Made by a program: the position numbers and the translations under genes. The notes under the pieces were generated by a model, which ran no database searches, was not told the origin of the DNA, and saw nothing but the letters and a program-made list of their open reading frames with translations. DNA of 64,000 bases from an uncultured bacterium (GTDB lineage Bacteria > Acidobacteriota > Thermoanaerobaculia > Multivoradales > JAHZIX01). The stretch lies in NCBI GenBank assembly GCA_965368975.1, contig CBDUPA010000012.1:83540-147539 (forward strand). The letters are read 5' to 3'. Positions 6,121 through 64,000 of this stretch are shown piece after piece. Each line of letters opens with the position of its first letter. Positions within the stretch are counted from its first letter, which is position 1.

Positions 6121-6441
6121 GTCTCCCTCCTCTCGATGCTGCCGACTTAGTTGAGACCAGGACCTGCCAAGGAAATAAATATCAGTCTTTCTTTAATCTT
6201 ATAGCAAGACGGATCTCTGTCGAAGTCCCCCGGCCAGACGTCGGCTCTCCAGGGGGCATTTGCATGTGGTCGCATCTACTAGATCCGAGCCCACACTGCG
6301 GTGCCGGGGGCTGCGCCCTCCGGCCCGGTCCCTCGGCGGATCGAGCGTCGCCCCCAGCGAACTGTGTGGACCACATCCCAGACCGTCTCCGCTACAATCC
6401 CCTCGACCCTTCGCCACTTTTCGCAACCGGGGGATTGCTGC

Positions 6442-34695: not shown

Positions 34696-34698
34696 ACG

Positions 34699-37638: not shown

Positions 37639-40362
37639 GTGGTCGTATGTCTCTTGGAGACAGTCGTTCGAAGAGCAGTGACAGCTGCTGCGATTCTGAC
37701 GCTTGTCGTGGGACTGGGCTTACAGGCACAGTCAGGGTCTGCTAACGCCCCGAAAGGGGCCCAGTTTGTCTTCGTGATCGATGATTCTGGCAGCATGGGG
37801 CAGCCGGAACACGGGCTTACAGACCCCGATCGGCTGGCTGTGTTCGCGGTGCGTGCTCTACTGGGTGTGCTCGACGACCGGGACTGGGCGACAGTTGTTC
37901 GTCTCAATGGCCCTCGCGAGGGTGAAGATCCGCTATCGCTGGCGCCTTTGGGAGATGCGCACCGAACCCGGCTGATGGAGGTTCTGCAGCTGGACGCGGA
38001 ACTGGCGCGATATGAGGGGGAGTACACGCCTTGCCGAAGGGCTCTACAGGCCGTCAAGCGGATGCTCGAAGGGTCGGATAGGCAGAACATTTCCCAAGTC
38101 GTGATCTTCCTTTCGGATGGCAAGTGCACACCGGTAACGCAAGGGGAAGATCGTGTCCTTGACTTTGCTGAAGGTTTGCGCTCGGCTCAGGGAGAGAATC
38201 CGCGCCTTCAGTTCTACTTTCTGCGATTCGAAGGGCAAGAGTACACTCCGGGGCTGGAGCAGCTGGCCGAGAACACCGGAGGTTCGGCGATCGAGGTCCG
38301 ACAGGGGGATCCGACGCGGATCCTCTACACCTTTGCGCAAGCGCTGGCCCGCTCGCAGGGCTACGAACCTCTGATCCTCAGTCCGAGCGTGCGGCAGCTG
38401 CCGGCCTACCGGGGGGCCAACCGAGTCCGCTTGCTGGCAATTGCGCGCGGCGATCAGGGAGAGCCGTTGGCGGTGCGCGTCCGGCGTCGTCAAGGGGGCG
38501 GAGTCGATACGGTGCCGATCGAGCAGGGCACCCACAGATTCCCGGGGCAACAGGGGTATCGCTTCGCTTCGGTGCAGTATCGGCCGGTCGAGCAGCCGGT
38601 GGAGGTGGAGGTGGTCGGAGCCGGCGAGGATTGGGAGGTCGTTGCCTTGCCGGAATATCACCTGGCGGTCAACCTGGCCTTGCGTCGTGGTGGCTGTGAG
38701 GAGGAAGGCGAGACCCTGGGTGGCGTCACGCCAGCCGGAAGCGGATTGTGTGCGGTGATCGAGCTAGTCAATGAGGAAGGGCGCGTGGTGGGCAAGGAGG
38801 TGACCACCGGGCAGTTACAGGCTTCCTTGCGTCAGACAGTCCCGGGTGGTTCCGAGCCTCGGCTGATTTCGGCAACGGAAGCTTCCTCGGATCTCGCCAG
38901 CTTCCGCTTGGATATACAAGGGCTCGAGAGCGGTCACCACGAGTTTCAGGGGCAGGTCCAGTTGGGGACCCAGGTTGACGATCCCCGAGTTCTGACGGGC
39001 ACTGCGCGAACACTGCAAGCAGTAGATCTGGCGATCCGGCCGGTTCCGAGTGAGCTGCGACTCGATCCAATCCAGCCCGGTGAGGTCAGCCGTCAGAGCC
39101 TGGAGATCCATGGCAACTTCGCGCCGTCGGAAGCCGTGGTCTCCTTGGAAGAGGGAGAGAATCTGCCGAGCTGCGTGACCTTAAGCTTTGACGGCAAGGA
39201 GCTTGGAGAGACCATCTCGATTCGTCCAAAGCAGGGCTACTGGGTCGAATTTCGGGCGGCCAAAGCCTGCGGCGAGACGCAAGGTCGACAGGTCGATGCG
39301 CGCCTGCGCCTGGAGCTTGCGGGACTCGATTCGATTGCCATACCGGTAACCTTTCGCTTGGAGAACAACGCCCAACGCCGAGATCCGACAACAGTGGAAT
39401 TGCGGGCAGGTACGACGAGAGAGGTCGATGTAGCAATCCCCGCGGCCTGGAATTCTTTCGACGTACAAGCAACCGCCGCCGAGAATGCGCAGGGCGAAAC
39501 CTATGAGTTGCTGCGCGCTGAGATTCTGAGCGAGCCTCCGATTCCCTCTGAAGACGGTGAAGCCTCAGGTCGCCAGCGAGTCGAGGGATTGACCGCTGAA
39601 CAGGGACTGTCTCTGCAACTCGTAGCTTCGGGCTGTTGCAGGTCCGGGACCTACGCCCTCGATGTCTACCTGTGGCCCAAGGTCGGTGCCACGACCATCG
39701 TACCGCTGGTCGTCGAAGTCGAGGCCAGCTGGTGGACCTGCTACGGCTCTTGGGTGCTCGCGGGGACCATCGGTCTCTTGGCTGGCTTGCTGGTGTTCTA
39801 TGTCCTGAGCATGTTCAGTCATACCACCTTGCTCGACCGAGACCAGCTGAGCGCTCGTCTAGTGCCCTTACGCTGGCCTCGCCATCGCGGCGCACCGCAA
39901 CCCGCCAGCAATCGCAGTAGTGACCGAGAAGAGGTCGAAGACATTGTGCACAGTGAAGTCTCTAGCCTGCAGCGGGTGCGGAGCTGGCTACGAGCCAATC
40001 CCCTGGTCTTTGGCTCGCCTGGGCGAGAGTACAGAGAGACGGCCGAACTCTTTTTGACCACTGATCTCGGGCTAACCTCGATTTCCCTGGTATTGGAGCG
40101 GGATGTCGTCGACCGACTCCGGACGAGCGAGGAGATCGACACTTGGGAAGAGGGGAGGCTCTTCGCGCGCGCCGGCAATCCCGTCTCCTTCTTTGTCGTG
40201 CGCGGTCCGAGCAAGAAAGTTCAGCAGATGACTCCGGAAGGCTGGTTCGGCAAGGTCGATGACCTGACTGTCGAGCAGGTTTCCAAAGGACAAAGATTCA
40301 TTCGTCAGCTTTCCATCAAAGAGCGCAAAGAAGGCGCTGTGGCCGGGTGGGTTCTGGAATAG
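37639..40362 (+). CDS. exported von Willebrand factor A (vWA) domain protein with single C-proximal TM helix and cytoplasmic tail
   Basis: Signal/anchor: RRAVTAAAILTLVVGLGLQAQS. vWA with MIDAS: FVFVIDDSGSMGQ...; VVIFLSDGKCTP. About 500 aa of beta-rich repeats follow. TM helix: WWTCYGSWVLAGTIGLLAGLLVFYVLSMF. The tail is ~200 aa. Confidence 0.75.
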   Translation: MVVCLLETVVRRAVTAAAILTLVVGLGLQAQSGSANAPKGAQFVFVIDDSGSMGQPEHGLTDPDRLAVFAVRALLGVLDDRDWATVVRLNGPREGEDPLSLAPLGDAHRTRLMEVLQLDAELARYEGEYTPCRRALQAVKRMLEGSDRQNISQVVIFLSDGKCTPVTQGEDRVLDFAEGLRSAQGENPRLQFYFLRFEGQEYTPGLEQLAENTGGSAIEVRQGDPTRILYTFAQALARSQGYEPLILSPSVRQLPAYRGANRVRLLAIARGDQGEPLAVRVRRRQGGGVDTVPIEQGTHRFPGQQGYRFASVQYRPVEQPVEVEVVGAGEDWEVVALPEYHLAVNLALRRGGCEEEGETLGGVTPAGSGLCAVIELVNEEGRVVGKEVTTGQLQASLRQTVPGGSEPRLISATEASSDLASFRLDIQGLESGHHEFQGQVQLGTQVDDPRVLTGTARTLQAVDLAIRPVPSELRLDPIQPGEVSRQSLEIHGNFAPSEAVVSLEEGENLPSCVTLSFDGKELGETISIRPKQGYWVEFRAAKACGETQGRQVDARLRLELAGLDSIAIPVTFRLENNAQRRDPTTVELRAGTTREVDVAIPAAWNSFDVQATAAENAQGETYELLRAEILSEPPIPSEDGEASGRQRVEGLTAEQGLSLQLVASGCCRSGTYALDVYLWPKVGATTIVPLVVEVEASWWTCYGSWVLAGTIGLLAGLLVFYVLSMFSHTTLLDRDQLSARLVPLRWPRHRGAPQPASNRSSDREEVEDIVHSEVSSLQRVRSWLRANPLVFGSPGREYRETAELFLTTDLGLTSISLVLERDVVDRLRTSEEIDTWEEGRLFARAGNPVSFFVVRGPSKKVQQMTPEGWFGKVDDLTVEQVSKGQRFIRQLSIKERKEGAVAGWVLE

Positions 40363-40408
40363 AGCTCGAGGCCGGTCCGAAAACAAAAGCAAAATTGCGA
40401 GGTTGAAC

Positions 40409-43400
40409 ATGGCCAGAGATCGTAAGTTGATCGTCGAAGAACTCCTGACCAAGCCCAGCGGCGTGTGTCCGATGCTGTTCGTTGGTATGGGAGGAGCGGG
40501 TTGCAGGATGGTGGAGCGGATCGCCGGTCATCTCCGAGGTCGACCGGATTATAAAGAACGCTTCAAAGATCTGGTCAAGTTCGCCATGATCGACAGCAAT
40601 GTCAATGATCTGGAAGGGTATCGAGAAGTGGCCAATGCAACCTTCCTGATCAGTGACTTCGAGAAGGAGGAGTACGCCAATCTGGCCTCTGGCAAGAAGT
40701 TCCTGGAACCGCAGCAGTACTTTACACAGTGGGTGCCGTCGGACTATCGCTTCCGCTCCGGAGATACCTCGGGGGCTGGCCAGATTCGCATCGAATCTCG
40801 TCTGGGTGTTTACTACCAGATGAAGCACAAACAATTCGTGCCCAGATTCCGCAGTCTCTTGGAGAGTCTGAAGTCGCACGAGAACGGACATCGGAGGTTG
40901 GACTCCGACGAGATCCGGATCGTACTCTGCTATTCCGTCGCCGGCGGAACCGGCTCCGGTTGTCATCTGCCAGTGGCCTATATGTTGCGGGATCAGGCCG
41001 ACGACCTGGGCAAGCCGACTTTGATCGGTGTTGCGGTGTTGCCGGCGGTCTTCGAGGACAAGGTCGGCGTCAATAAGGATGGTGTTTTTGCCAACGGTTA
41101 TGCAGCTCTGAAGGAAACCGAGCATTTGATGAAGCTCGGTGCCCCGGATTCTCGGTTCTTTCCCGAGAAGGGGATCGAGTTTCACTACAACCCCGCCGAT
41201 GAATCGAAGCGAACGGTTCACGCGCGTCCCTTCGACTTCCTTTATCTGATCGACAAACCCGAGTCGTTCAGCGTTCCCGAGCCGGTGGATGCTGCGGCGG
41301 ACGGACTCTATCTGCAGTTCTTCTCGCCCCTCTACGGGGCCCAGCTCTCCGACTACGACAACTACACGCAGTACCAGAGGTTCTTGGTACCGGAAGACTT
41401 CGAAGAGGGAGGCATTCCGGGCTTCTCGACCTTCTATGGCTCCTACGGTTGCGCAGTGCTCCTGGTGCCGGTTCCCGGCCTGGTGGAGTATTGCAGCCAG
41501 GCTGCCGCCCTGGCGTTGATTCGGGCCAGCTTCATGGGGGATATCCCAGCGGATCCGATGTACGAGCCCTTGCGCATCGACAGCGACCGCTTCTATGAAG
41601 TCAAGGAGCGCGACGACGAGGATGCGCAGCTCTTCCAGGCTGCGGATATCCCCAGTCAGCCTCAGAAAGAGCGTCGCCGAAGGTTGTTCGATCGGCTTTT
41701 TGCCAAGCGGGTGCGCCTGCTGGCGGCGTGTGAGTACCGGGCTGACCGCGACGGCCGGTTCCGCGGCATCTTCCGGCACGGCCACTATCTCGGAACCATC
41801 CCGAAGCTCGACGGTAGCGCCGTCATGGACATGGAGCGGTTCGACGAAGAGGCCGAGCGCGAGCGCGAGCTGGTCGGTGGCAAGCTCAGCGTTTCGATCG
41901 GCGGCATCATCCTGCCCGCCTTGGTCGGACTGCCGGGGGACGACCCCGGACTCCTGCAACGGGCGCACCAAGCGATCAAGAACTTCAAGGTCGACAAGCC
42001 GCGTCGTGACATGCGGGTCAACGAACTACGAGCGCGCGGCGACGCGTGGCGGACGATGTTGAGGGATGAGGGGCGTCAACGCCTGCGCGATGGCTACAGC
42101 GATGGCACGGTGCAGGTGCCTGGCATGGAGAGCCTGGTGCAAATGGACTTCCTGCGCCGGGAGGCGGGAGAGGTCGAGCTGGCGGCCAAGCGCTACGCGG
42201 TGCTCTCTCTGCTCGACGCGGTGGATTGGGAACAAGCGCCGGAAGACGAGGCCGAGTCCAACTTCGATGTCCAGGAGAAGAAGCCCACGGCCAAGGCCGA
42301 CGATGCCTTGATCGAGCACGTAATCAACCAGGCTCGGGATCTGGCCTTCCGCGACATCCGCCGCGAGTTCCTGTCCCAATTGGGCGAGTTGCGCGAGGCG
42401 CTGGAGAGCATCGCCGACGAGATGCGGGAGCTGGAGCAGGGGTCGACCAACCTGGAGCGCGAGTACGGTCGTCGCCTGGAGCGCCTGCAGTTCCAGGGCG
42501 AGGAGTCGGCCAATCAGTACATCCTGGACGCCGAGGCGTTGCAAGGGGAAGACAATCGACGCTTCTGGGACTTCTACTTCGAGGACAAAATCGCAGCTCT
42601 GCCCGAGTTGTCGCTGAGCAATGCTCGCGTGCAACAAATCCTGAGTGACACCGTCATCGAGCTATCGCAGCGTACGGGCCGCAGCACGAGCACGTCACGC
42701 CTGGAGAAACTGTTCACCGCGTTGCGCAAGTATGCCCAGGACTTCCTCGACAAGCGGATCGGCGGTGATCGTCACTCACCGGACCTGGAACGTCGCGAAG
42801 GGTTGACGCTGTCGGATGCGCTGGAGCTGGAGATCACCTACCGAGCGCTCTATCGCAGCTACGCCGAAGCGATCCAGGGGCAGGGGGACAAGGTCATTCG
42901 TCGCATTCTCTCCGAATACCGCGCCCTGCCCGACGAGAAGCAGATCGATTTCGCGGAGCCCAAGCACCAGGACTATCTGCGCGACAAGATCAAGCGGGTA
43001 GTGCAGGAGAAGGCATCCCTGCTCTGTGTCTACAACCACTCACGCGATCAGCATGGTGGCGTGCGGCCAAACCATATCTTCCTGGCCGCGATTGATGAGA
43101 ACTTCAAGAACAGCAACATCGAACAGGCGCTGAAAGATGCCGACATCGATGATCTCAAGTGGGTGTCCGGCAGCTGGCACAACGCCAAAGAGATCGTCTT
43201 CTACCGCGCGGTGTTGAATGTTCCGCTTTACACCTTCGGTCGGCTCGACCAGATGAAGCACCACTATGAAAGCTTCCGCAGTCTGAGGCGGCGCTCGAAG
43301 GTGCTGCACATCGACAAGAACTGGGAGGGTGACCAGCTCTGTGACCTGGATCCGGGCACGCTCAAAGAAGTGCATCGTCAACTAACCGTGCGCGACCAGA

Positions 43401-44278
43401 TCATCAACTTCACCTCGCTGCTGAGCAGCAAGCATCCGCGCATCGATGAGAAGGGGGCTACCTGCATCTTGCGTCGGCGCGGGCGCTACTATCTGCTGGA
43501 TCCGACCCTCAGCAAGATACCCGATGAGCACGATCCTGGTTCGACCTTGTTGGGCGACGCCCTGGCCCGAGCCATCGAACGCTTGCCCGAGGTGCTCGAT
43601 GCCGAGCGCGTGAACTTCAGCGAGTACCGGGATTCGCTGCACGGTGTACGCAATGGCATGGCCCCGTGGCTGCTGGGCAAGATCTGCAGGTTACCTTTCC
43701 AGTGGCGCCTGCAATACGAAGATTTGAGCAACCACTATGGGCATCAGCGTTCGATCGAGCAGCAAGAGATTCTGCGTGATCTGAAAAACTCCTACGAGAA
43801 GCTCAATGAAGCGCTGGACTCTCTGCTCGCGGAACTGCGCAATCGTCGACTCGAGAGTCGGACCCGCAAGGAGGACTTCACGGTCTACGCTCGCCGCTTG
43901 ACCGCCCAGCAGGCCAAGGATGCACTGGATCAGAGCATCAAGGTGCTGGCCAACTACAGCGAGGCCTGGAGCAAGGTCGAGGACAGCTCGCAGGTCCCGG
44001 ATACCCCCGAGTCGTTCGTGGATCTCTTCCAGCCTCTGGACCATGGCAAGTTGCAGAGCATGCTCGACAAGTTGCACAAGCCGATCCTTGATGACGATGA
44101 TGACGATGAGGAAGGCGATGGCCCCGGCCCAGCCAAGCCCCCAGCGGAGCCGGTCAAGCGCCCAGCGGAGCCAGACAAGCCCTCAGCGGAGCCAGACAAA
44201 GACTCGGCGGAGCCAGACGAAGACTCTGCCACTGAAGAGCCTTCGGAACCAGATCCCACTGAAACCGAAGGGTCATGA
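40409..44278 (+). CDS. giant tubulin/FtsZ-superfamily GTPase (Tubulin_2 / FtsZl-1-like) with long coiled-coil region and acidic repeat tail
   Basis: MLFVGMGGAGCRMVERI (G-box/T1-like), GDTSGAGQIRIESRLG (T3-like), and IRIVLCYSVAGGTGSGCHLPVAYML with the tubulin signature AGGTGSG at nt 40940-40960. GAGG lies 6 nt upstream of ATG 40409. The C-terminal ~800 aa are helical or charged. Confidence 0.7.
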   Translation: MARDRKLIVEELLTKPSGVCPMLFVGMGGAGCRMVERIAGHLRGRPDYKERFKDLVKFAMIDSNVNDLEGYREVANATFLISDFEKEEYANLASGKKFLEPQQYFTQWVPSDYRFRSGDTSGAGQIRIESRLGVYYQMKHKQFVPRFRSLLESLKSHENGHRRLDSDEIRIVLCYSVAGGTGSGCHLPVAYMLRDQADDLGKPTLIGVAVLPAVFEDKVGVNKDGVFANGYAALKETEHLMKLGAPDSRFFPEKGIEFHYNPADESKRTVHARPFDFLYLIDKPESFSVPEPVDAAADGLYLQFFSPLYGAQLSDYDNYTQYQRFLVPEDFEEGGIPGFSTFYGSYGCAVLLVPVPGLVEYCSQAAALALIRASFMGDIPADPMYEPLRIDSDRFYEVKERDDEDAQLFQAADIPSQPQKERRRRLFDRLFAKRVRLLAACEYRADRDGRFRGIFRHGHYLGTIPKLDGSAVMDMERFDEEAERERELVGGKLSVSIGGIILPALVGLPGDDPGLLQRAHQAIKNFKVDKPRRDMRVNELRARGDAWRTMLRDEGRQRLRDGYSDGTVQVPGMESLVQMDFLRREAGEVELAAKRYAVLSLLDAVDWEQAPEDEAESNFDVQEKKPTAKADDALIEHVINQARDLAFRDIRREFLSQLGELREALESIADEMRELEQGSTNLEREYGRRLERLQFQGEESANQYILDAEALQGEDNRRFWDFYFEDKIAALPELSLSNARVQQILSDTVIELSQRTGRSTSTSRLEKLFTALRKYAQDFLDKRIGGDRHSPDLERREGLTLSDALELEITYRALYRSYAEAIQGQGDKVIRRILSEYRALPDEKQIDFAEPKHQDYLRDKIKRVVQEKASLLCVYNHSRDQHGGVRPNHIFLAAIDENFKNSNIEQALKDADIDDLKWVSGSWHNAKEIVFYRAVLNVPLYTFGRLDQMKHHYESFRSLRRRSKVLHIDKNWEGDQLCDLDPGTLKEVHRQLTVRDQIINFTSLLSSKHPRIDEKGATCILRRRGRYYLLDPTLSKIPDEHDPGSTLLGDALARAIERLPEVLDAERVNFSEYRDSLHGVRNGMAPWLLGKICRLPFQWRLQYEDLSNHYGHQRSIEQQEILRDLKNSYEKLNEALDSLLAELRNRRLESRTRKEDFTVYARRLTAQQAKDALDQSIKVLANYSEAWSKVEDSSQVPDTPESFVDLFQPLDHGKLQSMLDKLHKPILDDDDDDEEGDGPGPAKPPAEPVKRPAEPDKPSAEPDKDSAEPDEDSATEEPSEPDPTETEGS
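44141..44224 (+). repeat. 4 x 21-bp in-frame tandem repeat (PAEPVKR/PAEPDKP/SAEPDKD/SAEPDED) inside the tubulin-like gene
   Basis: CCAGCGGAGCCGGTCAAGCGC / CCAGCGGAGCCAGACAAGCCC / TCAGCGGAGCCAGACAAAGAC / TCGGCGGAGCCAGACGAAGAC. Confidence 0.85.
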
Positions 44279-53801: not shown

Positions 53802-55967
53802 TCAAACCCGCGACGCCACCCACTCGCTGATCCTCCCGTGCGCAGTCACCAGCGCCGACTTGCGGGCACGCGTCAGCGCGACGTAGAGGAGGGCGCGTTC
53901 CATGAGTTCGGTTTCGCGCTGGATGGCTCGGTCTTTGGAGTAGCGCACGCGGGTGCGCCAGGGCATGTTGTCGTCGCTCAGGCCGGCGACGATCATGTGG
54001 TCGTACTCTAGGCCTTTGACGCGGTGCATGGTGGCGACGCGTAGGCCGGGTTTGTCGGCGTCGTCGCTGGTGTCGCGGCCCAGACGCAGGGTGGGGACGC
54101 CTCGGTCTTCTAGGGCTTCGGCGTAGCGGTCGGCGAGGGCGTTGGTGCGGGCGACGAGGCAGGCGTGGGTGGTCTCGCGGTCGGTGAGCCATTGGGCGAT
54201 GGCTTCGACTTCGTCGTCGAAGGTGGGTAGTTCGAGGGTTTGGGGGACCGCGCCGTGGGTGAGGGAGCGGTAGCCTTGACGCGAGTCGGCGGTGCCGTCG
54301 AGGTCGTCGAATTCTTGGTTCTCGAGCACGGCGACGGCGTAGCGGCGGATTTCGTCGGTGGTGCGGTAGTTGATGCGCAGGCGGCGGCCGCGACCGCGGA
54401 TGTTGACGCCAGCGTGGGAGAGCACGACGCGCTTACGGTAGATGCGCTGGTGGCCATCGCCGACCAGGAAGAGGTCGTCCGGCTTTTCGGGGACGGCGGC
54501 GCGCAGCAGGCGGAAGGCGTTGGTGCTCATGTCTTGCGCTTCGTCGACGACGATGGAGCGTAGCGCCAGCTGTACGCGGCCGGCTTCGAGCAGCACGCAG
54601 GCGTCGAGCAGGGCGTCTTCGGGTTCGCGCAGGCCGTGCTTGTCGAGCTGGTGGCGGTATTCTTCGAATACCGGCCAGATCGCCTTGCGCTGGGCGCGAC
54701 TGAGGCGCTCACCGCGACCGGCGCGGCTGGCTCGCTTGTAGTCTTTCCAGCTCTGGCAGCCTTGCGCCTGCACCACGGCTTCCCACTCGTCGCGGTAGAA
54801 GGACTCGGAGACTTCGAGGTGGGTTGCGGGATCGGATGCGCTGCTGGGCGCCAGCGTGAGGGCGGAGTCCCAGGAGTCCTTCAGCGGGCCACGGCTCGGA
54901 TCCCAGTACTTGATCCGGTATTCGTAGCCGGCGCGCAGCAGCAGGTCACGCACCCATTTGTCGATGTTGACGACATCGATGCGTCGCAGCGCTTCGGGTG
55001 GGCACAGGCGCGCCAGGTTGGCGCGGATGTCGTTGGCCAGGTTCTTGGTGAAGGTGGTGAAGAGGATGCGATCGCCGGGGGCGACGAAGACGTTCTGCGC
55101 CAGGTAGGCGGCGCGATGCATGGCGACGACGGTCTTGCCGGTACCGGCGCCGCCGAGCACGCGCACGGGACCGTTCCAGCTACGCTCGACCAGTTTGCGC
55201 TGGCTCGGGTGCAGGAAGGTGCGCCACTTTTCGAGCGGCGCGTCGAGCATCGCCTGCAGGCTGGCGTCGTCCTCGACGACCACGAAACGCCGCTTGGTGG
55301 CGTCGCGTTCGAGGGCGCGGTCGATGTCCGAGGTGTCGATGTCGGGCTCGGCGGACACCGCCATGGCCTGTTCGACTTCTTCCAGCGACTCGCCCTCGCT
55401 GAGCCAGTAGAGGGCTTCGAAAGCCTCGGGCGGCAGCTGCGCGGAAAGGGCCTCCAGTTCGTGGGCCCTGCGCAGCGCGCGCACCTCGTCGAGCTGGGGC
55501 TCGGGGACGCCGAGGCGCAGGAGTTCGCGGTCGCGGATGGCGTCGAAGAGGCGCGTTTCGACGGTGCCGGCACTTGCTGCCGGCGTCTCTGCCCCGTCCC
55601 GGGGCGACGCCGTCGCTTGGCGGCTGAAGACCTGCAGGGCGCCGGTTTCCGGGTGCACCGAGACGCTCTTGTGCTCGGCCCAGCGCATGGCTTTGTCGTG
55701 GTGGTCGATCCACAACAGCAGGTAGGTGTTGCCCTTCTCGGGCTGACGTACGATGGCTCGGTACTCCAGGTCGATGCGCACGGTGCGTAGACGCGGATCG
55801 GAGAAGGTGCTGATGGGCTCGTAGTTGATGCTGGACTGCGTGGGGTCCTGACGGAATTTGCGCAGGAACTTGCTCACCTTCTTCTGCTGTGCGCGCGGGA
55901 TGAGCGCGAAGGCATCGAAGAATTCCTCGTAGATCGCGACTTTGAAGGTTTGCTCGTAGGCCATCAC
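53802..55967 (-). CDS. UvrD/Rep-family SF1 helicase with RelE/ParE-fold-like N-terminal domain
   Basis: 721 aa. Walker A: VRVLGGAGTGKTVVAMHRAAYL. Walker B: SIVVDEAQDMS. C-terminal motifs: RVATMHRVKGLEYDHMIV, LLYVALTRARK. The N-terminal ~100 aa (KVSKFLRKFRQDPTQSSINYEPI...RTVRIDLEYRAIVRQPEKGNTYLLLWIDHHDKAM) follow the RelE/ParE toxin pattern. ATGA overlap with the upstream gene. Confidence 0.8.
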   Translation of the reverse strand: MMAYEQTFKVAIYEEFFDAFALIPRAQQKKVSKFLRKFRQDPTQSSINYEPISTFSDPRLRTVRIDLEYRAIVRQPEKGNTYLLLWIDHHDKAMRWAEHKSVSVHPETGALQVFSRQATASPRDGAETPAASAGTVETRLFDAIRDRELLRLGVPEPQLDEVRALRRAHELEALSAQLPPEAFEALYWLSEGESLEEVEQAMAVSAEPDIDTSDIDRALERDATKRRFVVVEDDASLQAMLDAPLEKWRTFLHPSQRKLVERSWNGPVRVLGGAGTGKTVVAMHRAAYLAQNVFVAPGDRILFTTFTKNLANDIRANLARLCPPEALRRIDVVNIDKWVRDLLLRAGYEYRIKYWDPSRGPLKDSWDSALTLAPSSASDPATHLEVSESFYRDEWEAVVQAQGCQSWKDYKRASRAGRGERLSRAQRKAIWPVFEEYRHQLDKHGLREPEDALLDACVLLEAGRVQLALRSIVVDEAQDMSTNAFRLLRAAVPEKPDDLFLVGDGHQRIYRKRVVLSHAGVNIRGRGRRLRINYRTTDEIRRYAVAVLENQEFDDLDGTADSRQGYRSLTHGAVPQTLELPTFDDEVEAIAQWLTDRETTHACLVARTNALADRYAEALEDRGVPTLRLGRDTSDDADKPGLRVATMHRVKGLEYDHMIVAGLSDDNMPWRTRVRYSKDRAIQRETELMERALLYVALTRARKSALVTAHGRISEWVASRV

Positions 55968-58900
55968 TCAGTCTCCTCTGCTAGCGCCTCTGCTAGTACC
56001 TCGGCCAGCGGCGAGACGTCGACCGTCCCGTCGGGCTCGAGCGCCAGGTCTTCCAGGTAGAAAAGTCTCCAGTCCGCCGCCGGCTCGCCGACGGCCCAGG
56101 CGCTGTCGGCGTACGAGGTGAGCGCGACGCGCGCGGTGTGCCACACCAGTTCGGCCTCGCTCCACACGGTATCGCGCTGGTTCGGTATGTCGTCACCGAC
56201 CACCGGCTCCACGATGCCCGCGGCGATCATGGCCTCGGCGGCGCCTCGGTAGGCGTCCTCGATCTCGTCGAGCTGTGTCCAGATTGCATCCTCGCCTTCC
56301 GGGCCGTGCTCGGCGAGGCTGCGCAGCTGAGCGATGCCGCTGTAGTCGCCGACGTCCGATGTGGTGACGAAGACGATGTCGTCGATCGCGCGCAGCCACT
56401 GGAAGAGACGCAGGAAGCCACGCCACGCCCGGTGCATCTGCGGCAGTTCGCGCCGATCTTCGCGGTCGTCGAGTTCGCGGTCGTCGAGGCGGGCGAGCAC
56501 GGTCACTCGCTGACCATCGTGGGCGGCCATCCACTCGATCTGCCGCGGCTCGCCCCAGGTGCCGCTGGCGAGGGCGCGGGGCCTCGTCGCGGCGAGCTGG
56601 TCGCGTAGGGCTTCCGGTGCCGCTTGCCGCGCGAACTCGGTCCAGGCGCGTTGCTGACTCGGCAGCGTGGCTTCGAGTCGAGGTACCAGCGCCGCCGCCG
56701 CCAGGTCGCGCCACGGCAAGCCGTTGGCATCTTGGAGGTCCTGCAAGAGCCAGCGGAAGGTCGACTGTTGCGGCAGGTCGGTGAACTGGGTGAGGCCCAG
56801 CTGCTGGAGAGCCTTCTTGAAGTCACCCAGGTCGAGCGCCGCCAGTTCGGGCGCGGGCTCGACCTCGGTGGATCTCGTCAGCTCGGCTTCCAGATCGTCC
56901 CAGGTGAAGGTCCACACGTCCCAGCCCGCGGCCAGCAGTGCCTGGCGCTGGCGCAGGTCCTGCCCCAAGCGATCTTGGTGGAACTGCCAGCCGTCGAGGA
57001 AGATGGCCAGACGACGATCGGTGGCGGCGCTGGCCGGTCGCAGCACGAAGTCGATCGAGACGCCGATGCCGCCGGTCTCGGCCCTCGGCGGTTCGACCTG
57101 CGGCTCGATACGCCATTGGGCGTCGCCCAGCGTCCACAGCCAAGCATCTTTGATGCCGATCGGGATCCGCTTCAGCTGGGCTGGGTGCTGTTCGTTGCCG
57201 GCGCGTAGTAGGGCTTCGAGGAAGCGGGCTTCGAGGGCACTGTCGAGCAGGCCGGAGTGGCTGATGTCGCCCAGGCGTTCGATTTCCTGCACGCTGTCGG
57301 CGCGCGCCAGGATGCGGCGCAGGATCTCGGAGGCCGTGCGCGCCGAGGTGTCGCGCATCTCGCGACTGTTGCGGTAGCCGAAGAGGCAGCGATAGCAGCC
57401 TTCCACCAGCTTGCCGGCTCGGTTCGTGGTGCCCCAGCAGGCGCAGCCCTCGATCCGTTGCAGGCTCGCCTCGAGAGCTCGGAACAGGGGTATCGTGGCA
57501 TCGGCATCGGGCGTGACCAGCTGTTTCAGAAAGCCGGTGCCGCCGGGCACGGAGTCGAAGAGCACCAGGTACTGGCGGCGCAGCGTGCTGTCGGGAGTCG
57601 GTTCGGAGTAGACGGTGGTGCGCAGGTGGTCGACGCTGCCGGCGAAGTAGCTCTCCAGCCCCAGCTGCAGGGCGGCGGTGAACGAGTTGAGCTGGCGCGT
57701 GCCGGCGAAGTCGGTGATCGGCAGCAGCAGGCGCAGGGCCTCGGACTCGAGCTGGCGGTAGAGATAGACGCAGGACTCGATCTGCTCGTCCGTGTCCTTG
57801 CGTCGCGACGGGCAGGACAGCAGGTGGTCGGTCTTCTCACCCTTGCGCGTCGCCTGCACCTTGCCGCAGCGTGCGCACAGCTCGAAACCCTGGCGCACCA
57901 TGGCTCGGCCGGCGATGGTGTTGCGCGCGCCCAGGTCGGAGGGTTCGCCGAAGTTGATGTCGCGAAAGGTCACCCGTGCGCAGTACTCGAAGCCGAAGGG
58001 GTGACGGTCGTCGTCCAGCCGCCAGGCGCGCGAGGAACTGCGAGTGTCGAAGGTGGGCAGGATGTCGCGCTCGAAGAAGCGCGGCTGGCGTTCGTCGCGA
58101 TCGTCGCGAATCCGGGAGTTGCGGTCGGATTCTCTGGCGAATACTTGCTCCAGCTTCAGCAGGCGCTGGGTCTGGCCGCTGTCGCGCCAGTCGGCGGCGC
58201 CGCAAACCGGGCAGGCCGTGTGCGCATCGCCGGTGTCGATCGACTCGGCGTGGCTGCACTCGGGGCAGAAGCGCCAGGTCTCGAGCTTGGAGGACGAGAG
58301 ATCGACGGCGTCGATGCCCACGCGTCGTCCCGAAGCGTAGAACTCGGCGCCAGGCGCCAGCTCGGCCAGGGCGCTCGACGGCGAGCGCTTGTACTCGTAG
58401 GTCCAGGTTTCGTAAGGACTCCCCTGGGCTGGAGGGTGCTTCTTGCGCCGCCAGATCACCGAGCGCAGTCGCACCGCCGACTCCGGGAAGGCGTAGTTGG
58501 GCAGCAGGCCCTGGTCGGTGAGGAATTCGAGCGTCGAGCGCTGGTTGATCGCCTTGATCAGGCCGATCAGGGCCTCTTTCTCGGCTTCGCGCTCGTCGAT
58601 CTGCTCCTGGTGGTCCTTGTCGCGGGCCTCGGTGGCGCGTAGCACTTTGAGTTGCTTGCGCAGGGTCTCTACGTTGGCGCGGTGTGCTTCGCGCTGCTTG
58701 CGTTCCTTGTGCAGGGTGTCGAGCAGGCGGCTTTCGAGGGTCGCCTCGATGTGGTGCAGGGCATCTCGAGCTTGCGCCTTCTCGGGCTGCTCGCTGTCGA
58801 GTTCAGCTTTGGCCTCCGCGCCGAGCAGGAAGCGCTCCAGGTGGGCGGCGGTGGGCGGTCCGATCTCGTCCTCGAACATCTCGAGGAATTCTCGCAGCAG

Positions 58901-61900
58901 GCGCGGACGCTCCTGCTTCACGAAGGCGAGCAGGTTGCTCGGGAACCGCTCGACGTCCGGCTGGTTGCCTTGGTTGAGCACGCTGCGCAGCTGCGGCGGT
59001 AACTCGGCACGGTCACCCTCGACGCCGACCCAGCGATCGATGCAGAAGGCGGTGAGCTGGCGTTCGAGCACGGCTCCGGTGTCGAGAAAGACACCGGGCG
59101 GCGGCACGTCACCGGCGATCATCTCGTGCGGCTGGGCGAAGAAGTAGAGGTCGTGCGGCTTCGCCGCGGCGACGGTGAGCACGAAGGCGTTGCCATCGCG
59201 CCGGCCGGCGCGGCCGATGCGCTGCAGGTAGCTGGCCTGGCCGGGTGGTACCGAGCACAGGATGGCGCTCGACAGGTCGCCGATGTCGATGCCCATCTCC
59301 AGCGTCGGCGTGCAAGAGAGCAGGTTCGGGTACCACGGCCGCCGCGCCTCGGGATCGTCCAGCTCCGGCGACGGTTCGAATGCTTTGAACTCGATCTCGA
59401 TGCGCTCGCGCTCGGCGCGCTCCAGCAGGCCGGTATGCTCCTGGGCAAAGATGCGCTGCAGGTGACCGCTGCGGTAGAGATGGCCGAAGTAGTCGTGTGC
59501 CGGCGCGGCGTCCGGACGGTAGACGCCGGCACAGCCCGTGCGCAGGCAGGGTACGCCGTGCCAGCGTTCGGCCAGCGCGCGGCTGGCGTGGGTGCGGTGA
59601 CCGCAGACGTGGCAAGCCAAGGCTGCACTGTGCGGGCTGATGACCAGCGCTTCTTCGCGCAGACCCCAGATCTGCTCACCCTTGGATGCACTGCGCTCGT
59701 CGAGCAGGCCGACTCGCACCAGCGCGCTCAGCACCACCGGGTACAGCGAGCCGGCGTCGGCGACCAGGCCGGGGCCACCCAGGAAGCAGGCATCGGCCCA
59801 GCGTGCATACCAGGATTCCCCGCCCCGTCCGGTGCGGCTCCAGGTGTCGAAGCGACGGCCGGTGCGGTCGGTCAGGAAGCTGGGCAGGCGCGAGCTGCTC
59901 TTGTAGCCGGGCAACGCCGGTTGCCGGGAGAAGGCATGGACATCCTTGCCGCAGCTCTCGATATAGGCGCCCGGCAGGCTGCGTGCCAGGATGCCGCCGC
60001 GCAGGCGCAGGTGTTGTAGCAGTCCGAGCACGAACGCCTCGACGCGCCGCGCTTCGACCTGGCGCAGGCCGGGCACCTCGTTGCGCACCACCTCCACCAA
60101 GGCCGCCACCGCGGTCTCTACATCGCCCGGCCGCAGGTCGGCGACGGCGCAGCCGGTGCGGGTCAGTGAGCGGCCGATCTCCGCCTGCAGCGAGAACTCG
60201 GTCAGCACCTCGAAGGCCAGGCGCTGGTCGATGAGGTCCGGCAGGTCGGAGGCGCGCGGTAGCTCGCCGTCGCGACGCAAGGCGTCCCAATCGTGCAGCC
60301 AGGCCATGTTGGGCGCCAGGAAGGTGGCGACGAAGGTCGCCTCGTCGTGCGCCTGCCGAGCCCACGGGCCGAGCCCGTCGGCCAGCTCGCGCAGCGTGGT
60401 TTCGCCCAGGGGCTCGAGCGCTTGCAGCATCGCGATGCGCAGGTTGGTACGCCAGGTGCGAGCGGCAAAGAAGCCGGCCCGGTGCGCCGCGTCTTGCACG
60501 CTGTCGGAGAAGGTGAGCAGCTTCTTGTCGTCGTTGAAGCGCGAGGCGAAGAGCTGGTCGATGTGCACGCTGGTCAGCGTGGCGGCGCGGAAGCCGACGA
60601 TGGCCAGGCTCTCGCGTGCGCGGCAGAAGGGGCAGTCGCGCACCAGGGCTTGCCGGCTGGCGGTGGACTGAGCTTCGAAGATTTCGATCACCCGCAGCGT
60701 CTCGTCGGCGTGCTCCGCGTCGACCTTGATCAGGTTCTTCACGTCGAGCTCGAAGGCGCTGTGCTGGAGCCGGTCGTCGGCGGGCCAGGCGTTGGCGGGG
60801 AACAGGAAGCGTACGCGGCTGCTGCGCCCGAAGTAGGCGTCGTAGAAGCGCCGCGGCAGGCAGCGATAGAGGTACGGCCGATCGCGTTCCACCACAGTGC
60901 CCCAGCCCAGGGCGCCGCATTCGCGGCAGTGGATCATCGGCAGGTGGCGGTCTTGCTCCTCCTCGTCGAGGTCGTCGGAGTGCCGCAGGTGCGGCTGCGG
61001 TCCAACGTTGGCGACCAGGCGTCGCAGCTCGCGTTGCCACAGCTGCACGCGCACCTCCAGCAGCGGCGCCGCCGGTCTCGGTCGCCCCTCGGCGCGCCGC
61101 CGCTCGGCCACTTCGGGCAACTCGTGACGCCAGGCGCGAGCCTCGGAGACCAGGCCCAGCAGGCTGAGCACGGCGAGGCGGGCGAACTGGGCGTCCCGGT
61201 GCCAAGCGTCGCGCCTGCGCCGCATCTCGTGCACGGCGTCGTCCAGCGTCGTGGCCTGGCCATCGAGGGCGCGCAGCAGGTCGTGGAAGGCGGCATGGTG
61301 GCGCAACTGCCGCCCCAACTCGACGCTGCGCTCGAACGATTCAGGCCCAGTGAGTTCGCCCTCACCGTCGGCGCCGATCGTCGCCGCTACGTCTGCCGGG
61401 AACCACAGGGCGAGCTGCGCCGCCAGCCAGGCGTGCGGGTCCGGGGCCTGCGCCGCGTCGAGTCGCTCCAGGTCTTCAGCGTCCGGTTCCTCGGTGTAGC
61501 GGATCTCGCAGCCGTGCAAGAACTGCTCCACACTCTGCCGCGTCTCGCCGATGATGGCGTCGGCGTCGAAGGGTTCGCCGAAGACCTTACGCGCATAGTC
61601 CCGCAGCTGTTCTCGCGCCGCCTCGCCGCCCAGCGTGGCGCTGGTGCCGATGCAGGCCAGCGAGCCGTCGTCCACGTCGAGACGCCGCTTGAGGCGTCGC
61701 AGCAGGCAGGCCAGGTCGGTGCCCTGGGCGCCGTCGAAGGTGTGGATCTCGTCGACCACCAGGAAGCGCAGCGTGCCCTTCACGTTGTGCTGCCAGATGC
61801 GCTGATCGCGTGGACGCAGCAGCAGGTAGTCGAGCATCTTGTAGTTGGTGAGCAGGATGTCCGGCGGCGCTTCTTGCAGGGTGGCGCGATCGGTGATCAC

Positions 61901-62461
61901 GTGGTCCGCCCCCATGCGCGTCTCGCCGTGTGCCGACCCACGACGCTTGCCCTTGCCACCGCTACCCCCGTCCCCCACGTAGAGCCCCGCCGTCACGCGG
62001 CCGCGCAGCTTGTGGTTGTCATAGATCCGCCGCGCGATGCGCGCCGCCTGGTCGCTGGCCAGCGCGTTCATGGGGTAGATCAAGATCGCCTTGACGCCCG
62101 GCTCGTGCGCCGTCTGCAGGCAGTGGTCGAGAATCGGAAGCAGGAAGCTCTCGGTCTTGCCGGAGCCGGTGCCGGTGGCCAGCAGGGTGCTCTGCTTGCG
62201 TCGACCGCCGAGGCGGGCGAACACTTGTTCCTGGTGGTGATGGGGAGGAAACCCGAGCGGTACGTCGGGGAAGACGTCTGGGGTCTCGCCGCTCAGGAAG
62301 GGCATCTTGACGGAGAGGTAGGGCCCCTTGAACAGCATGCCGTCGTCCGCGAGCAGGTGTTCGACGACGTTCTCCATGCCCGGCGTGGAGGACCAGAAGG
62401 AGAAGCGCAGGAAGTCTTGCAAGCCCTGTTCGAGCTGGCGGTGGATGGCGGAGGGGATCAA
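55964..62461 (-). CDS. 2165-aa DExH-box helicase with DUF1998 zinc-ribbon domain and C-terminal Vsr/DUF559-like domain (DrmA+DrmB-fusion-like / DruE-like)
   Basis: Motif I: LLATGTGSGKTESFLLPIL. Motif II: LRFLVVDEIHTFDG. Motif III: IGTSATL. Motif VI: YLQRIGRAGRRDG. Zinc ribbons: CPECSH...CPVCG, CARCGK, CYRCL. DUF1998 core: YLVLFDSVPGGTGFLKQL. Near the C-terminus, IDFVLRP...RLAIFLDGWQFH...RQALLAAGWDVWTFTWDDL resembles the DUF559/Vsr endonuclease fold. Confidence 0.8.
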   Translation of the reverse strand: MIPSAIHRQLEQGLQDFLRFSFWSSTPGMENVVEHLLADDGMLFKGPYLSVKMPFLSGETPDVFPDVPLGFPPHHHQEQVFARLGGRRKQSTLLATGTGSGKTESFLLPILDHCLQTAHEPGVKAILIYPMNALASDQAARIARRIYDNHKLRGRVTAGLYVGDGGSGGKGKRRGSAHGETRMGADHVITDRATLQEAPPDILLTNYKMLDYLLLRPRDQRIWQHNVKGTLRFLVVDEIHTFDGAQGTDLACLLRRLKRRLDVDDGSLACIGTSATLGGEAAREQLRDYARKVFGEPFDADAIIGETRQSVEQFLHGCEIRYTEEPDAEDLERLDAAQAPDPHAWLAAQLALWFPADVAATIGADGEGELTGPESFERSVELGRQLRHHAAFHDLLRALDGQATTLDDAVHEMRRRRDAWHRDAQFARLAVLSLLGLVSEARAWRHELPEVAERRRAEGRPRPAAPLLEVRVQLWQRELRRLVANVGPQPHLRHSDDLDEEEQDRHLPMIHCRECGALGWGTVVERDRPYLYRCLPRRFYDAYFGRSSRVRFLFPANAWPADDRLQHSAFELDVKNLIKVDAEHADETLRVIEIFEAQSTASRQALVRDCPFCRARESLAIVGFRAATLTSVHIDQLFASRFNDDKKLLTFSDSVQDAAHRAGFFAARTWRTNLRIAMLQALEPLGETTLRELADGLGPWARQAHDEATFVATFLAPNMAWLHDWDALRRDGELPRASDLPDLIDQRLAFEVLTEFSLQAEIGRSLTRTGCAVADLRPGDVETAVAALVEVVRNEVPGLRQVEARRVEAFVLGLLQHLRLRGGILARSLPGAYIESCGKDVHAFSRQPALPGYKSSSRLPSFLTDRTGRRFDTWSRTGRGGESWYARWADACFLGGPGLVADAGSLYPVVLSALVRVGLLDERSASKGEQIWGLREEALVISPHSAALACHVCGHRTHASRALAERWHGVPCLRTGCAGVYRPDAAPAHDYFGHLYRSGHLQRIFAQEHTGLLERAERERIEIEFKAFEPSPELDDPEARRPWYPNLLSCTPTLEMGIDIGDLSSAILCSVPPGQASYLQRIGRAGRRDGNAFVLTVAAAKPHDLYFFAQPHEMIAGDVPPPGVFLDTGAVLERQLTAFCIDRWVGVEGDRAELPPQLRSVLNQGNQPDVERFPSNLLAFVKQERPRLLREFLEMFEDEIGPPTAAHLERFLLGAEAKAELDSEQPEKAQARDALHHIEATLESRLLDTLHKERKQREAHRANVETLRKQLKVLRATEARDKDHQEQIDEREAEKEALIGLIKAINQRSTLEFLTDQGLLPNYAFPESAVRLRSVIWRRKKHPPAQGSPYETWTYEYKRSPSSALAELAPGAEFYASGRRVGIDAVDLSSSKLETWRFCPECSHAESIDTGDAHTACPVCGAADWRDSGQTQRLLKLEQVFARESDRNSRIRDDRDERQPRFFERDILPTFDTRSSSRAWRLDDDRHPFGFEYCARVTFRDINFGEPSDLGARNTIAGRAMVRQGFELCARCGKVQATRKGEKTDHLLSCPSRRKDTDEQIESCVYLYRQLESEALRLLLPITDFAGTRQLNSFTAALQLGLESYFAGSVDHLRTTVYSEPTPDSTLRRQYLVLFDSVPGGTGFLKQLVTPDADATIPLFRALEASLQRIEGCACWGTTNRAGKLVEGCYRCLFGYRNSREMRDTSARTASEILRRILARADSVQEIERLGDISHSGLLDSALEARFLEALLRAGNEQHPAQLKRIPIGIKDAWLWTLGDAQWRIEPQVEPPRAETGGIGVSIDFVLRPASAATDRRLAIFLDGWQFHQDRLGQDLRQRQALLAAGWDVWTFTWDDLEAELTRSTEVEPAPELAALDLGDFKKALQQLGLTQFTDLPQQSTFRWLLQDLQDANGLPWRDLAAAALVPRLEATLPSQQRAWTEFARQAAPEALRDQLAATRPRALASGTWGEPRQIEWMAAHDGQRVTVLARLDDRELDDREDRRELPQMHRAWRGFLRLFQWLRAIDDIVFVTTSDVGDYSGIAQLRSLAEHGPEGEDAIWTQLDEIEDAYRGAAEAMIAAGIVEPVVGDDIPNQRDTVWSEAELVWHTARVALTSYADSAWAVGEPAADWRLFYLEDLALEPDGTVDVSPLAEVLAEALAEETE

Positions 62462-64000
62462 GCGCGGTCCTTCCCGTCAGCGAGCGGACGGCCTTGTTCG
62501 GCGAATCTTTTGGTGAAATGTTCCCAGGCGACCGCGTAGTCCTTCTCGCGGTCGCAGCGCACCCACGGCGCCTGGTACACGATCGTCTTCTCGCGCGGGC
62601 CGCCGGGCAGAGTGTCGTCCATCACGACCTGGGTCACGGTCTCGTTGCCGGTGTAGCCGGCTTCTTCGGACATGTGTTGGACGTCGTTCCAGCAGGGGTT
62701 CGGATCTTTCTTGCTGGTGGTGCGGTTCAGGCCGACACCCACCAGGCCGCGCGAGTTGGTGAAGACGATGCGGCCGTTGCGGTCGTACCAGGTGTCGGCT
62801 TCGTAGGAGCGCAGGACGGGGAATTGGACGCGGTAGATGGTCTGGAGTTGTTCGAGGGTGAGGCCGAGGGCCATGGAGATCAGGACGTCGATTTCTACCA
62901 GCACGGCGCGGCGGGCGGCGTCGGGGCGGATGGCGGAGTCGCGGGTCCAAGACTGGTCGCTCGATGCGAAGGGCTGTTCCAGGAATTGAGAGAGGAAAGG
63001 TGTCGCTTCTGTACTCCACTCCCGCCTGGATCGGCGATTCCAGAGATCTGCGAAGTGGGTGGTGAGGCAAACGAGGCTACAGACTCGGGCGACGAGAGCT
63101 TCCTGGATCTTGGACTCGGGGATGATCGGTAGGCGCCGCGCCAGGTTTGGTCGGAAGTCTCCAGAGCCGCTCGATTTGATCAGGAAGTCAATCGGTAAAG
63201 ACATCCACGTCCCAGCTACAGCTACAGCCTGAGTCTCATTCGAAAAACAATAACTGTAGACACCGTCGATGTGCGCTGTGCCTGGTGGTGAGATGGCCGG
63301 TTGCAGTGTGCGCTCACTTGTCGGGCCCAGACCTCTGTTCACCACGAGTCGAAAGTAGTCCAGTACCGCGTTCGGGGCATCATCCGAGGCCCAAGGGACT
63401 TTGGGCGATCGCGTCCGATAGTCTGAGGGCTCGGCATTGGGCAGATAGATCGAGCGCGGCAGATAGTCTTCTGGTAGCTCCGTCAGGTCCAGTACGTCAT
63501 AGCAGCTGTTGTTCGTGACCTCTGCGCGCGGAGTCTTGTAGAACGGATTACCGACGTGGAAGTGCGGTCCGGAAATAATCCATTCGTGTACATCTTGCGG
63601 GAACCTCACCTCCTTTCGGATGGTTCCATCCCGCTGAGACCGGGACTCGTGCCACATTTCTGCCGACTTGTAGCAGTCTGCCGGCAGATCGCCCAGTTTC
63701 AATGGACTGACAGCGAACGCTTCGAGCGCCTGAAGCAAGGTCGCAGAATGGAGCGCCGGAAGCTTGGCCTCCGTTGCCGGAGTGTCCGGTTCGTCATAGA
63801 GACGAGCAAAGAGTTCCAGCTCCGTCTCCGTGATGCGCAGAATCCGATCACGATGACCGCGCGTCTCCCAGCTGTTCTCGTCGTCCTTGATCCCGGGCAC
63901 CGGGCCGTAGCCATCGTGGGCATGACACTCGTCGATGGTTGCGGGGACGAAGAGATTTGCCAGGTGCGTGAAGTCCGGAGTGCTTCTTTGGGCTCCATAG
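62458..64000 (-). CDS. C-terminal part of a large MmeI/Eco57I/PglX-like DNA methyltransferase-type protein (5' end outside the window)
   Basis: The frame stays open upstream of the track's GTG (63900) to the window edge (...NLFVPATIDECHAHDGYGPVPGIKDD...). ERTLQPAISPPGTAHIDGVYSYCFSNETQAVAVAGTWMSLPIDFLIKSSGSGDFRPNLARRLPI resembles the target-recognition domain of type IIG/IIL enzymes. No catalytic NPPY/DPPY motif is visible in the in-window part. ATGA-type overlap with the helicase gene. Confidence 0.4.
   Translation of the reverse strand, partial: YGAQRSTPDFTHLANLFVPATIDECHAHDGYGPVPGIKDDENSWETRGHRDRILRITETELELFARLYDEPDTPATEAKLPALHSATLLQALEAFAVSPLKLGDLPADCYKSAEMWHESRSQRDGTIRKEVRFPQDVHEWIISGPHFHVGNPFYKTPRAEVTNNSCYDVLDLTELPEDYLPRSIYLPNAEPSDYRTRSPKVPWASDDAPNAVLDYFRLVVNRGLGPTSERTLQPAISPPGTAHIDGVYSYCFSNETQAVAVAGTWMSLPIDFLIKSSGSGDFRPNLARRLPIIPESKIQEALVARVCSLVCLTTHFADLWNRRSRREWSTEATPFLSQFLEQPFASSDQSWTRDSAIRPDAARRAVLVEIDVLISMALGLTLEQLQTIYRVQFPVLRSYEADTWYDRNGRIVFTNSRGLVGVGLNRTTSKKDPNPCWNDVQHMSEEAGYTGNETVTQVVMDDTLPGGPREKTIVYQAPWVRCDREKDYAVAWEHFTKRFAEQGRPLADGKDRA

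Follow-up and report, generated by a model that had tools for sequence, protein, structure and literature searches.

A probable ARMADA type II anti-phage operon in a high-GC bacterial contig

Three co-directional minus-strand open reading frames (ORFs) occupy positions 53802-64000 of a 64,000-nucleotide stretch of contig CBDUPA010000012.1 (GCA_965368975.1). This whole stretch is called the window here, and all positions are counted from its first letter as position 1. With a probability of about 0.88, the region holds the 3' part of armB together with armC and armD of the ARMADA type II anti-phage system. The locus is an ordinary member of an already described system, and its novelty is low.

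ARMADA type II was named and tested in Escherichia coli in 2025 (Bell et al., PMC12458937; bioRxiv 10.1101/2025.09.22.677730). It consists of ArmA, a BrxHII/RapA-like helicase; ArmB, a PglX-like methyltransferase; ArmC, a YprA-like helicase whose C-terminal Vsr nuclease is predicted to be active; and ArmD, a GajB-like helicase fused to an N-terminal RelE-like domain (PMC12458937). Of 80 phages, the system of E. coli NCTC 12900 defends against 13; the defence is direct, shows no sign of abortive infection and requires all four genes (PMC12458937). Walker motifs in ArmA and ArmC, Walker A in ArmD and NPPW in ArmB are needed as well, and mutating ArmC K110 or D234 abolished defence (PMC12458937). 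A second study, of enterohaemorrhagic E. coli (EHEC) EDL933, arrived at similar conclusions.

Gene layout and protein domains

The gene nearest the window edge, armB (62458-64000, minus strand), ends at 62458 and is stop-free for all 513 codons from 63999, at the window edge, so the gene extends past position 64000. At its junction with armC, the sequence TTGA combines the armC start (TTG, 62461-62459) with the armB stop (TGA, 62460-62458), and the TTG start is supported by homology with E. coli ArmC, which begins at residue 1. The second junction reads GTGATG. A GTG start for armD at 55967 gives a 4-nt overlap, and an alternative ATG at 55964-55962, with GGAG 8 nt upstream, overlaps the armC stop by 1 nt. 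The ATG-start protein fits the N-terminus of E. coli ArmD better, and armD more probably starts there than at the GTG. Whichever start is used, the genes are translationally coupled. The first-pass annotation, made from the letters alone, had recognised the three minus-strand genes and the 4-nt overlap at 62458-62461, and the TTGA junction bears this out; its second 4-nt overlap, at 55964-55967, holds with the GTG start and shrinks to 1 nt with the likelier ATG.

The armB fragment encodes the C-terminal 513 residues of a PglX/Eco57I-type DNA methyltransferase. It matches the PADLOC model REase_MTase_IIG PDLC03614 (1.3e-79) over model positions 1110-1577 of 1584 and is 44% identical to residues 1120-1638 of the 1643-residue E. 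coli ArmB. These two matches support the first-pass description of an Eco57I/PglX-type C-terminus. The first-pass annotation had likened this C-terminus to the target-recognition part of such enzymes; the identity is rather high for a specificity domain. Pfam gave no match to the fragment, and a sequence search returned no relative with a solved structure. Its position directly upstream of armC on the same strand is that of the methyltransferase gene in ARMADA type II.

The armC gene (55964-62461, minus strand, TTG start) encodes a 2165-residue YprA-family DExH helicase-nuclease. Its RecA1/DEAD domain (residues 73-285; 61607-62245; Pfam DEAD, 2.1e-19) carries an intact Walker A motif, GSGKT, at residues 99-103 (62153-62167) and an intact DExH motif, DEIH, at residues 237-240 (61742-61753). 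Within these motifs, K102 and D237 align with K110 and D234 of E. coli ArmC. RecA2/Helicase_C motifs follow at residues 1045-1140 (59042-59329; Pfam Helicase_C, 3.3e-07), then a segment at 58532-58819 that reads as a coiled coil and resembles the coiled-coil finger described for ARMADA by Bell et al., and an MZB/DUF1998 zinc-binding domain at residues 1595-1693 (57383-57679; Pfam MZB/DUF1998, 8.3e-11). The DUF1998 cysteines C1673, C1675, C1689 and C1692 are invariant among 15 homologues, in agreement with the first-pass call of a 2165-residue DExH helicase with a DUF1998 Cys4 ribbon. Five further cysteine pairs are invariant in the same set: C512/C515 and C610/C613, which sit in a long insertion ahead of the RecA2/Helicase_C region, and C1399/C1402, C1417/C1420 and C1529/C1532. 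Their pattern is consistent with the zinc-binding modules of ARMADA type II, in the RecA2 insertion and the OB region; a BrxA-like helical insertion behind RecA1 is a further expected feature of these helicases.

Over its full length, ArmC aligns with E. coli ArmC at 36% identity and 1251 bits. It also has 120 full-length homologues of about 2100 residues from many phyla, at 40-66% identity. By sequence comparison it is an orthologue of E. coli ArmC and not of DruE or DrmA. Its DUF1998 module is fused to the helicase and not split off as in DISARM.

Profile searches give a different first impression. The best PADLOC matches of ArmC are DruE1 (3.6e-99) and DruE3 (1.6e-91), each covering parts of the protein only, and DrmA follows at 1.6e-15 within residues 1047-1113, the Helicase_C motif. 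The database searched, PADLOC-DB 2.0.0, dates from 2023 and holds no ARMADA models. The first-pass annotation had expected matches to DrmA, DrmB or DruE profiles and a methyltransferase upstream; the helicase does match DruE and, weakly, DrmA, and the upstream gene is of methyltransferase type. The best PDB chain is 9tu7_Y (137 bits), a 2108-residue DEAD/DEAH box helicase that we take to be a DruE.

Such matches are what a new Druantia subtype built around DruE would produce, yet that reading is highly improbable. The type III DruE that adjoins the E. coli armABCD operon, a genuine DruE, matches ArmC at only 110 bits and in the helicase motifs only, against 1251 bits for ArmC. Moreover, the neighbouring genes include no DruA-D, DruM/F/G or DruH, the C-terminal nuclease is Vsr-like and not of PLD type, and the flanking methyltransferase and UvrD genes are conserved partners.

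The ArmC C-terminus was modelled with AlphaFold2 as residues 1715-2165 (25 homologues, mean predicted local distance difference test score 89). In the model, residues 1740-1866 (56864-57244, minus strand) form a domain with a Vsr-like fold, a predicted PD-(D/E)xK nuclease with D1804, D1823 and H1828 as putative catalytic residues. In profile searches, residues 1798-1855 give a sub-threshold match to Pfam REase_MTES_1575, a family matched by 12 of 23 homologous segments, every one under the gathering score, and a profile of the block retrieved no Vsr from the PDB sequences. Among 15 homologues at 41-63% identity, the invariant positions are D1804 (in IDFVL), D1823-G1824 (FLDG) and H1828 (QFH), together with D1835, Q1838, R1839, W1850, W1854 and D1856; D1804, D1823/G1824 and H1828 remain invariant in a wider set at 25-65% identity.

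The first-pass annotation had doubted the activity of this domain on the grounds that the acidic residue usually found before 'DG' is replaced. When the pattern is set against E. coli Vsr (PDFVV ... FTHGCFWH), Vsr D51 corresponds to D1804, H64 to D1823 and H69 to H1828. On this alignment, the DG aspartate is preceded at a distance of two positions by a hydrophobic residue that matches Vsr F62, which is the Vsr-type state and therefore not a lost DUF559 glutamate. Since D1804, D1823/G1824 and H1828 are invariant, the doubt finds no support, and the domain is predicted to be active. The Vsr-like nature of the block, also proposed at first pass, agrees with the modelled fold; the block is a canonical part of ARMADA type II and not an extra. 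Beyond it, the last ~290 residues of ArmC (residues 1875-2165; 55967-56839, minus strand) form a C-terminal extension of two further, confidently modelled alpha/beta domains that is kept in about 110 of the 120 homologues.

The last gene, armD (53802-55964, minus strand), encodes a GajB/UvrD-like superfamily 1 helicase of 720 residues from the ATG, or 721 from the GTG at 55967. The UvrD-like helicase named at first pass is evident from Pfam UvrD-helicase (1.1e-24) and UvrD_C (2.6e-18), and PADLOC GajB matches at 3.3e-27. Its motifs include Walker A (GTGKT, at residue 274) and VDEAQD at residue 473. From residue 6 on, and with the N-terminal domain included, the protein is 48% identical to E. 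coli ArmD over 712 residues. The N-terminal ~115 residues (1-115; 55620-55964) have the RelE/YoeB toxin fold, in which E49, R63, Y68, R69, H89 and D90 are invariant. A gene downstream of armC that encodes a helicase with this N-terminal fusion is what ARMADA type II prescribes. The first-pass annotation had seen the helicase and missed its RelE-fold N-terminus, and had ranked as accessory what is a canonical component.

A 144-residue protein from a Joint Genome Institute (JGI) metagenome, P0317, is 63% identical to the ArmD N-terminal domain and carries the JGI annotation 'mRNA-degrading endonuclease RelE'. Its last 40 residues are of low complexity, so a frameshifted armD is the probable explanation, not a free-standing toxin.

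Related loci and comparison with known defence systems

At least 80 additional related loci from many phyla, on contigs of one genome per species, were scanned by tblastn; the counts that follow are among the matches listed. Of the 53 loci with at least 8 kb of upstream sequence, 45 have a methyltransferase gene ahead of the helicase gene in the same orientation. An SNF2 gene lies further upstream in 39 of these 45, most of the others being limited by flank length. Downstream of the helicase, 63 of 64 loci have a UvrD-like gene. The complete four-gene operon is seen in a metagenome contig and in Magnetococcus marinus MC-1, in the order SNF2 helicase (~950-1020 residues), Eco57I-type methyltransferase (~1580-1630), helicase (~2100) and UvrD-like protein (~710). 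A BrxR-like gene precedes the Magnetococcus locus.

This recurrence bears on the idea of a stand-alone type IIG restriction-modification enzyme that happens to lie beside two unrelated helicase genes. The match of the methyltransferase fragment to PADLOC type IIG models is compatible with such an enzyme. Overlapping start and stop codons at both junctions, a gene order that recurs across phyla in 45/53 and 63/64 loci, and the need for all four genes in E. coli defence make the idea extremely improbable.

The junction between armB and armC is variable across the collection. The two genes overlap in the window, and about 25 of the 45 related loci have 1-6 kb inserted between them. One insert (locus L036, 6086-9994) holds a 440-residue gene without known function, a GmrSD type IV restriction enzyme and a PIN toxin; another (L053, 5784-9798) holds XisH, two XisI genes and a helix-turn-helix gene. 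This junction seems to be a preferred site for embedded cargo of the defence or toxin-antitoxin kind, an awkward fit with the strict gene order reported for ARMADA type II (PMC12458937).

The E. coli armABCD reference locus has residue numbers identical to those of the published mutants (ArmC K110 and D234, ArmD K266 and D454, ArmB N971), and thus the same numbering as the validated NCTC 12900 system. Its operon is flanked by druE on one side and by an IS1 element, an integrase and tRNA-Phe on the other, in agreement with the published placement. Among 5426 complete E. coli genomes, 526 carry close homologues of an enterobacterial armC, at 533 places, 15 of them on plasmids.

Set beside ARMADA type II of E. 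coli NCTC 12900, ATCC 8739 and EDL933, the window shows the same B-C-D order and the same translational coupling. The ArmC architecture is shared throughout: DExH core, Cys-rich insertions, coiled-coil segment, DUF1998, Vsr-like nuclease and C-terminal extension. The RelE-like plus UvrD/GajB architecture of ArmD is shared as well, and the tested catalytic residues are conserved. The differences lie in the high-GC host, in the proteins, which are just 36-48% identical, and in the setting. The E. coli operons sit with Druantia III and Zorya II by tRNA-Phe and an integrase, whereas this one sits beside a vWA/FtsZl1 cluster; the window has no detected tRNA gene, and no integrase was found among the window ORFs scanned. 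In ARMADA type I the helicase gene usually comes first and a RelE-GajB-like ArmD is missing, unlike the order of methyltransferase, helicase and ArmD found here.

Class 1 DISARM (DrmD, DrmMI, DrmA, DrmB, DrmC) shares with ARMADA type II an SNF2 helicase, an adenine methyltransferase and a YprA-family helicase with a DUF1998 module, and methylation-based discrimination of self from non-self is presumed for both. A DISARM variant with a DrmA-DrmB fusion and another protein in place of DrmC would account for an adenine methyltransferase followed by a DUF1998 helicase, for the SNF2 genes upstream in related loci and for the weak DrmA matches (PADLOC, 1.6e-15). Those matches, however, are confined to the Helicase_C motif, and the NCBIfam model DISARM_DrmAL scores 18 bits against a cut-off of 999. 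DISARM keeps DUF1998 in a separate protein, DrmB, uses the PLD nuclease DrmC and has no ArmD. Here DUF1998 is fused, a Vsr domain and ArmD are present, no separate DrmB gene occurs, and the three proteins and their neighbours include no PLD (DrmC) domain. With a helicase that is a full-length ArmC orthologue, of a group that Bell et al. put nearer to Druantia, the variant is very improbable.

Druantia type III supplies the nearest biochemically characterised helicase, DruE, likewise a YprA-family protein, in which DUF1998 (MZB) is joined by a C-terminal nuclease in the same chain; its substrates are single-stranded or forked DNA. Its nuclease is of PLD type, and the system pairs it with DruH and has no gene for a methyltransferase, SNF2 or UvrD protein. 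The nuclease here is Vsr-like. Bell et al. describe ARMADA as the 'missing link' between DISARM and Druantia and place its helicases closer to Druantia than to DISARM (PMC12458937). The first-pass label of a DISARM/Druantia-like operon with a fused DrmA-DrmB-type helicase was accordingly right in kind; the operon is a member of neither system and belongs to ARMADA type II.

BREX shares a PglX-like methyltransferase needed for defence, a BrxHII-like helicase (type 3) and BrxR-type regulators. It differs in that the ARMADA effector here is a helicase-nuclease. PglZ, BrxC, BrxA and BrxB were not found among the window ORFs scanned (33592-64000), and PglZ and BrxC were not found among the called genes of two related loci, L001 and L003. 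BREX was rejected on the lack of PglZ and BrxC among those window ORFs.

Several points weigh against the assignment to ARMADA type II. The SAM-binding GxG and NPPW motifs of ArmB are expected beyond position 64000, and armA, the gene for the SNF2/BrxHII-like helicase, is expected just past it; because armA and the ArmB catalytic domain fall outside the window, the completeness of this system is unproven. Pfam finds no RelE/ParE family in the ArmD N-terminus, even with E-values up to 10. At the position of the ArmC C-terminal extension, Bell et al. put inactivated EEP and Vsr domains, often present (PMC12458937). A Foldseek search of the extension against the PDB gave no significant match, leaving its fold unassigned, so the reported EEP-like domain is not confirmed here. 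In the literature, no ARMADA mechanism has been published, the system is described as awaiting detailed characterisation, and the word methylation is absent from the main text of both ARMADA papers.

That armA and the 5' two-thirds of armB lie outside the window would also suit a decayed or incomplete remnant of ARMADA type II that has lost armA or carries a truncated armB and has ceased to defend its host. Full-length armC and armD with intact catalytic motifs and invariant residues, an armB frame open over all 513 in-window codons and preserved coupled junctions make such a remnant unlikely, and an ARMADA type II operon remains the preferred reading.

Neighbouring genes in the window

The window has a GC content of 0.62-0.74 over most of its length, which dips to 0.53 at 52-54 kb. 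Directly downstream of armD, in this 0.53-GC patch, two ORFs occupy 52263-53649 on the minus strand, and a weak terminator-like site at 53724-53701 lies between them and armD. One, of 184 residues, has hydrophobic ends and a charged helical middle on inspection and matches DUF5345 below threshold only. Neither it nor the other, of 303 residues, could be placed convincingly in a family, and no relative of either lies beside armD in 85 related loci, among the matches listed.

A four-gene plus-strand cluster at 37639-52258, with overlapping or closely spaced genes, adjoins the ARMADA operon and converges on it. It encodes a vWA protein of 907 residues, an FtsZl1/Tubulin_2 protein of 1291 residues (Pfam, 8.8e-41), a protein of 1351 residues without family, and a protein of 1315 residues with apparent N-terminal hydrophobic segments, by inspection, and a DEAD/AAA-like ATPase. 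No PADLOC system matched this cluster. Operons of the vWA/FtsZl1 kind were described in 2010 as uncharacterised and possibly a membrane-remodelling machinery (PMC2875224). Because the cluster lies in a lower-GC island beside ARMADA, its placement suggests a role in conflict or defence.

Ahead of this cluster on the plus strand, adjacent genes at 33592-37464 match Lant_dehydr_C (3.3e-33) and Lant_dehydr_N (1.4e-46) and have the look of a LanB-type dehydratase split in two. This suggests that genes for lanthipeptide or thiopeptide biosynthesis form a cluster just upstream of the island. A 1001-residue protein encoded at 6301-9306 (plus strand) combines a TIR domain at its N-terminus (1.1e-16) with TPR repeats, and its gene may be another of immune type.

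Proposed mechanism and meaning

The results presented here concern anatomy and orthology, and the steps of a mechanism are drawn by analogy to BREX, DISARM and Druantia III. In the proposed scheme, ArmB would mark host DNA by N6-adenine methylation and might also be built into the restriction complex, like PglX in BREX. The likeness to PglX rests on the need for NPPW in defence and on the EHEC study, where arm deletion mutants, including armB, showed no growth difference without phage. ArmC, possibly delivered or remodelled by ArmA, would load on phage genomes that lack the modification, whether invading or replicating, at single-stranded or junction DNA; DrmAB and DruE have been shown to engage DNA of single-stranded or junction form. 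It would then translocate and nick or cleave with its Vsr-type domain. ArmD may assist unwinding or sense stalled complexes, and ArmA and ArmD would serve as auxiliary motors.

A more speculative and rather unlikely version gives ARMADA type II two arms. Besides the DNA attack by ArmC, the RelE/YoeB-fold domain of ArmD would act as a helicase-gated ribonuclease, freed when the DNA arm stalls or when a phage inhibits it. If that were true, ArmD would be a built-in second, RNA-directed effector and not an accessory motor.

The finding alone raises no new question, and its value lies elsewhere. A reading of raw sequence picked out a real multi-gene defence system. The locus also extends the system by an orthologue from a high-GC host, whose proteins share 36-48% identity with those of E. 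coli. At this distance, the residues that stay invariant, D1804, D1823 and H1828 in ArmC and E49, R63, R69 and H89 in ArmD, offer themselves as targets for mutagenesis.

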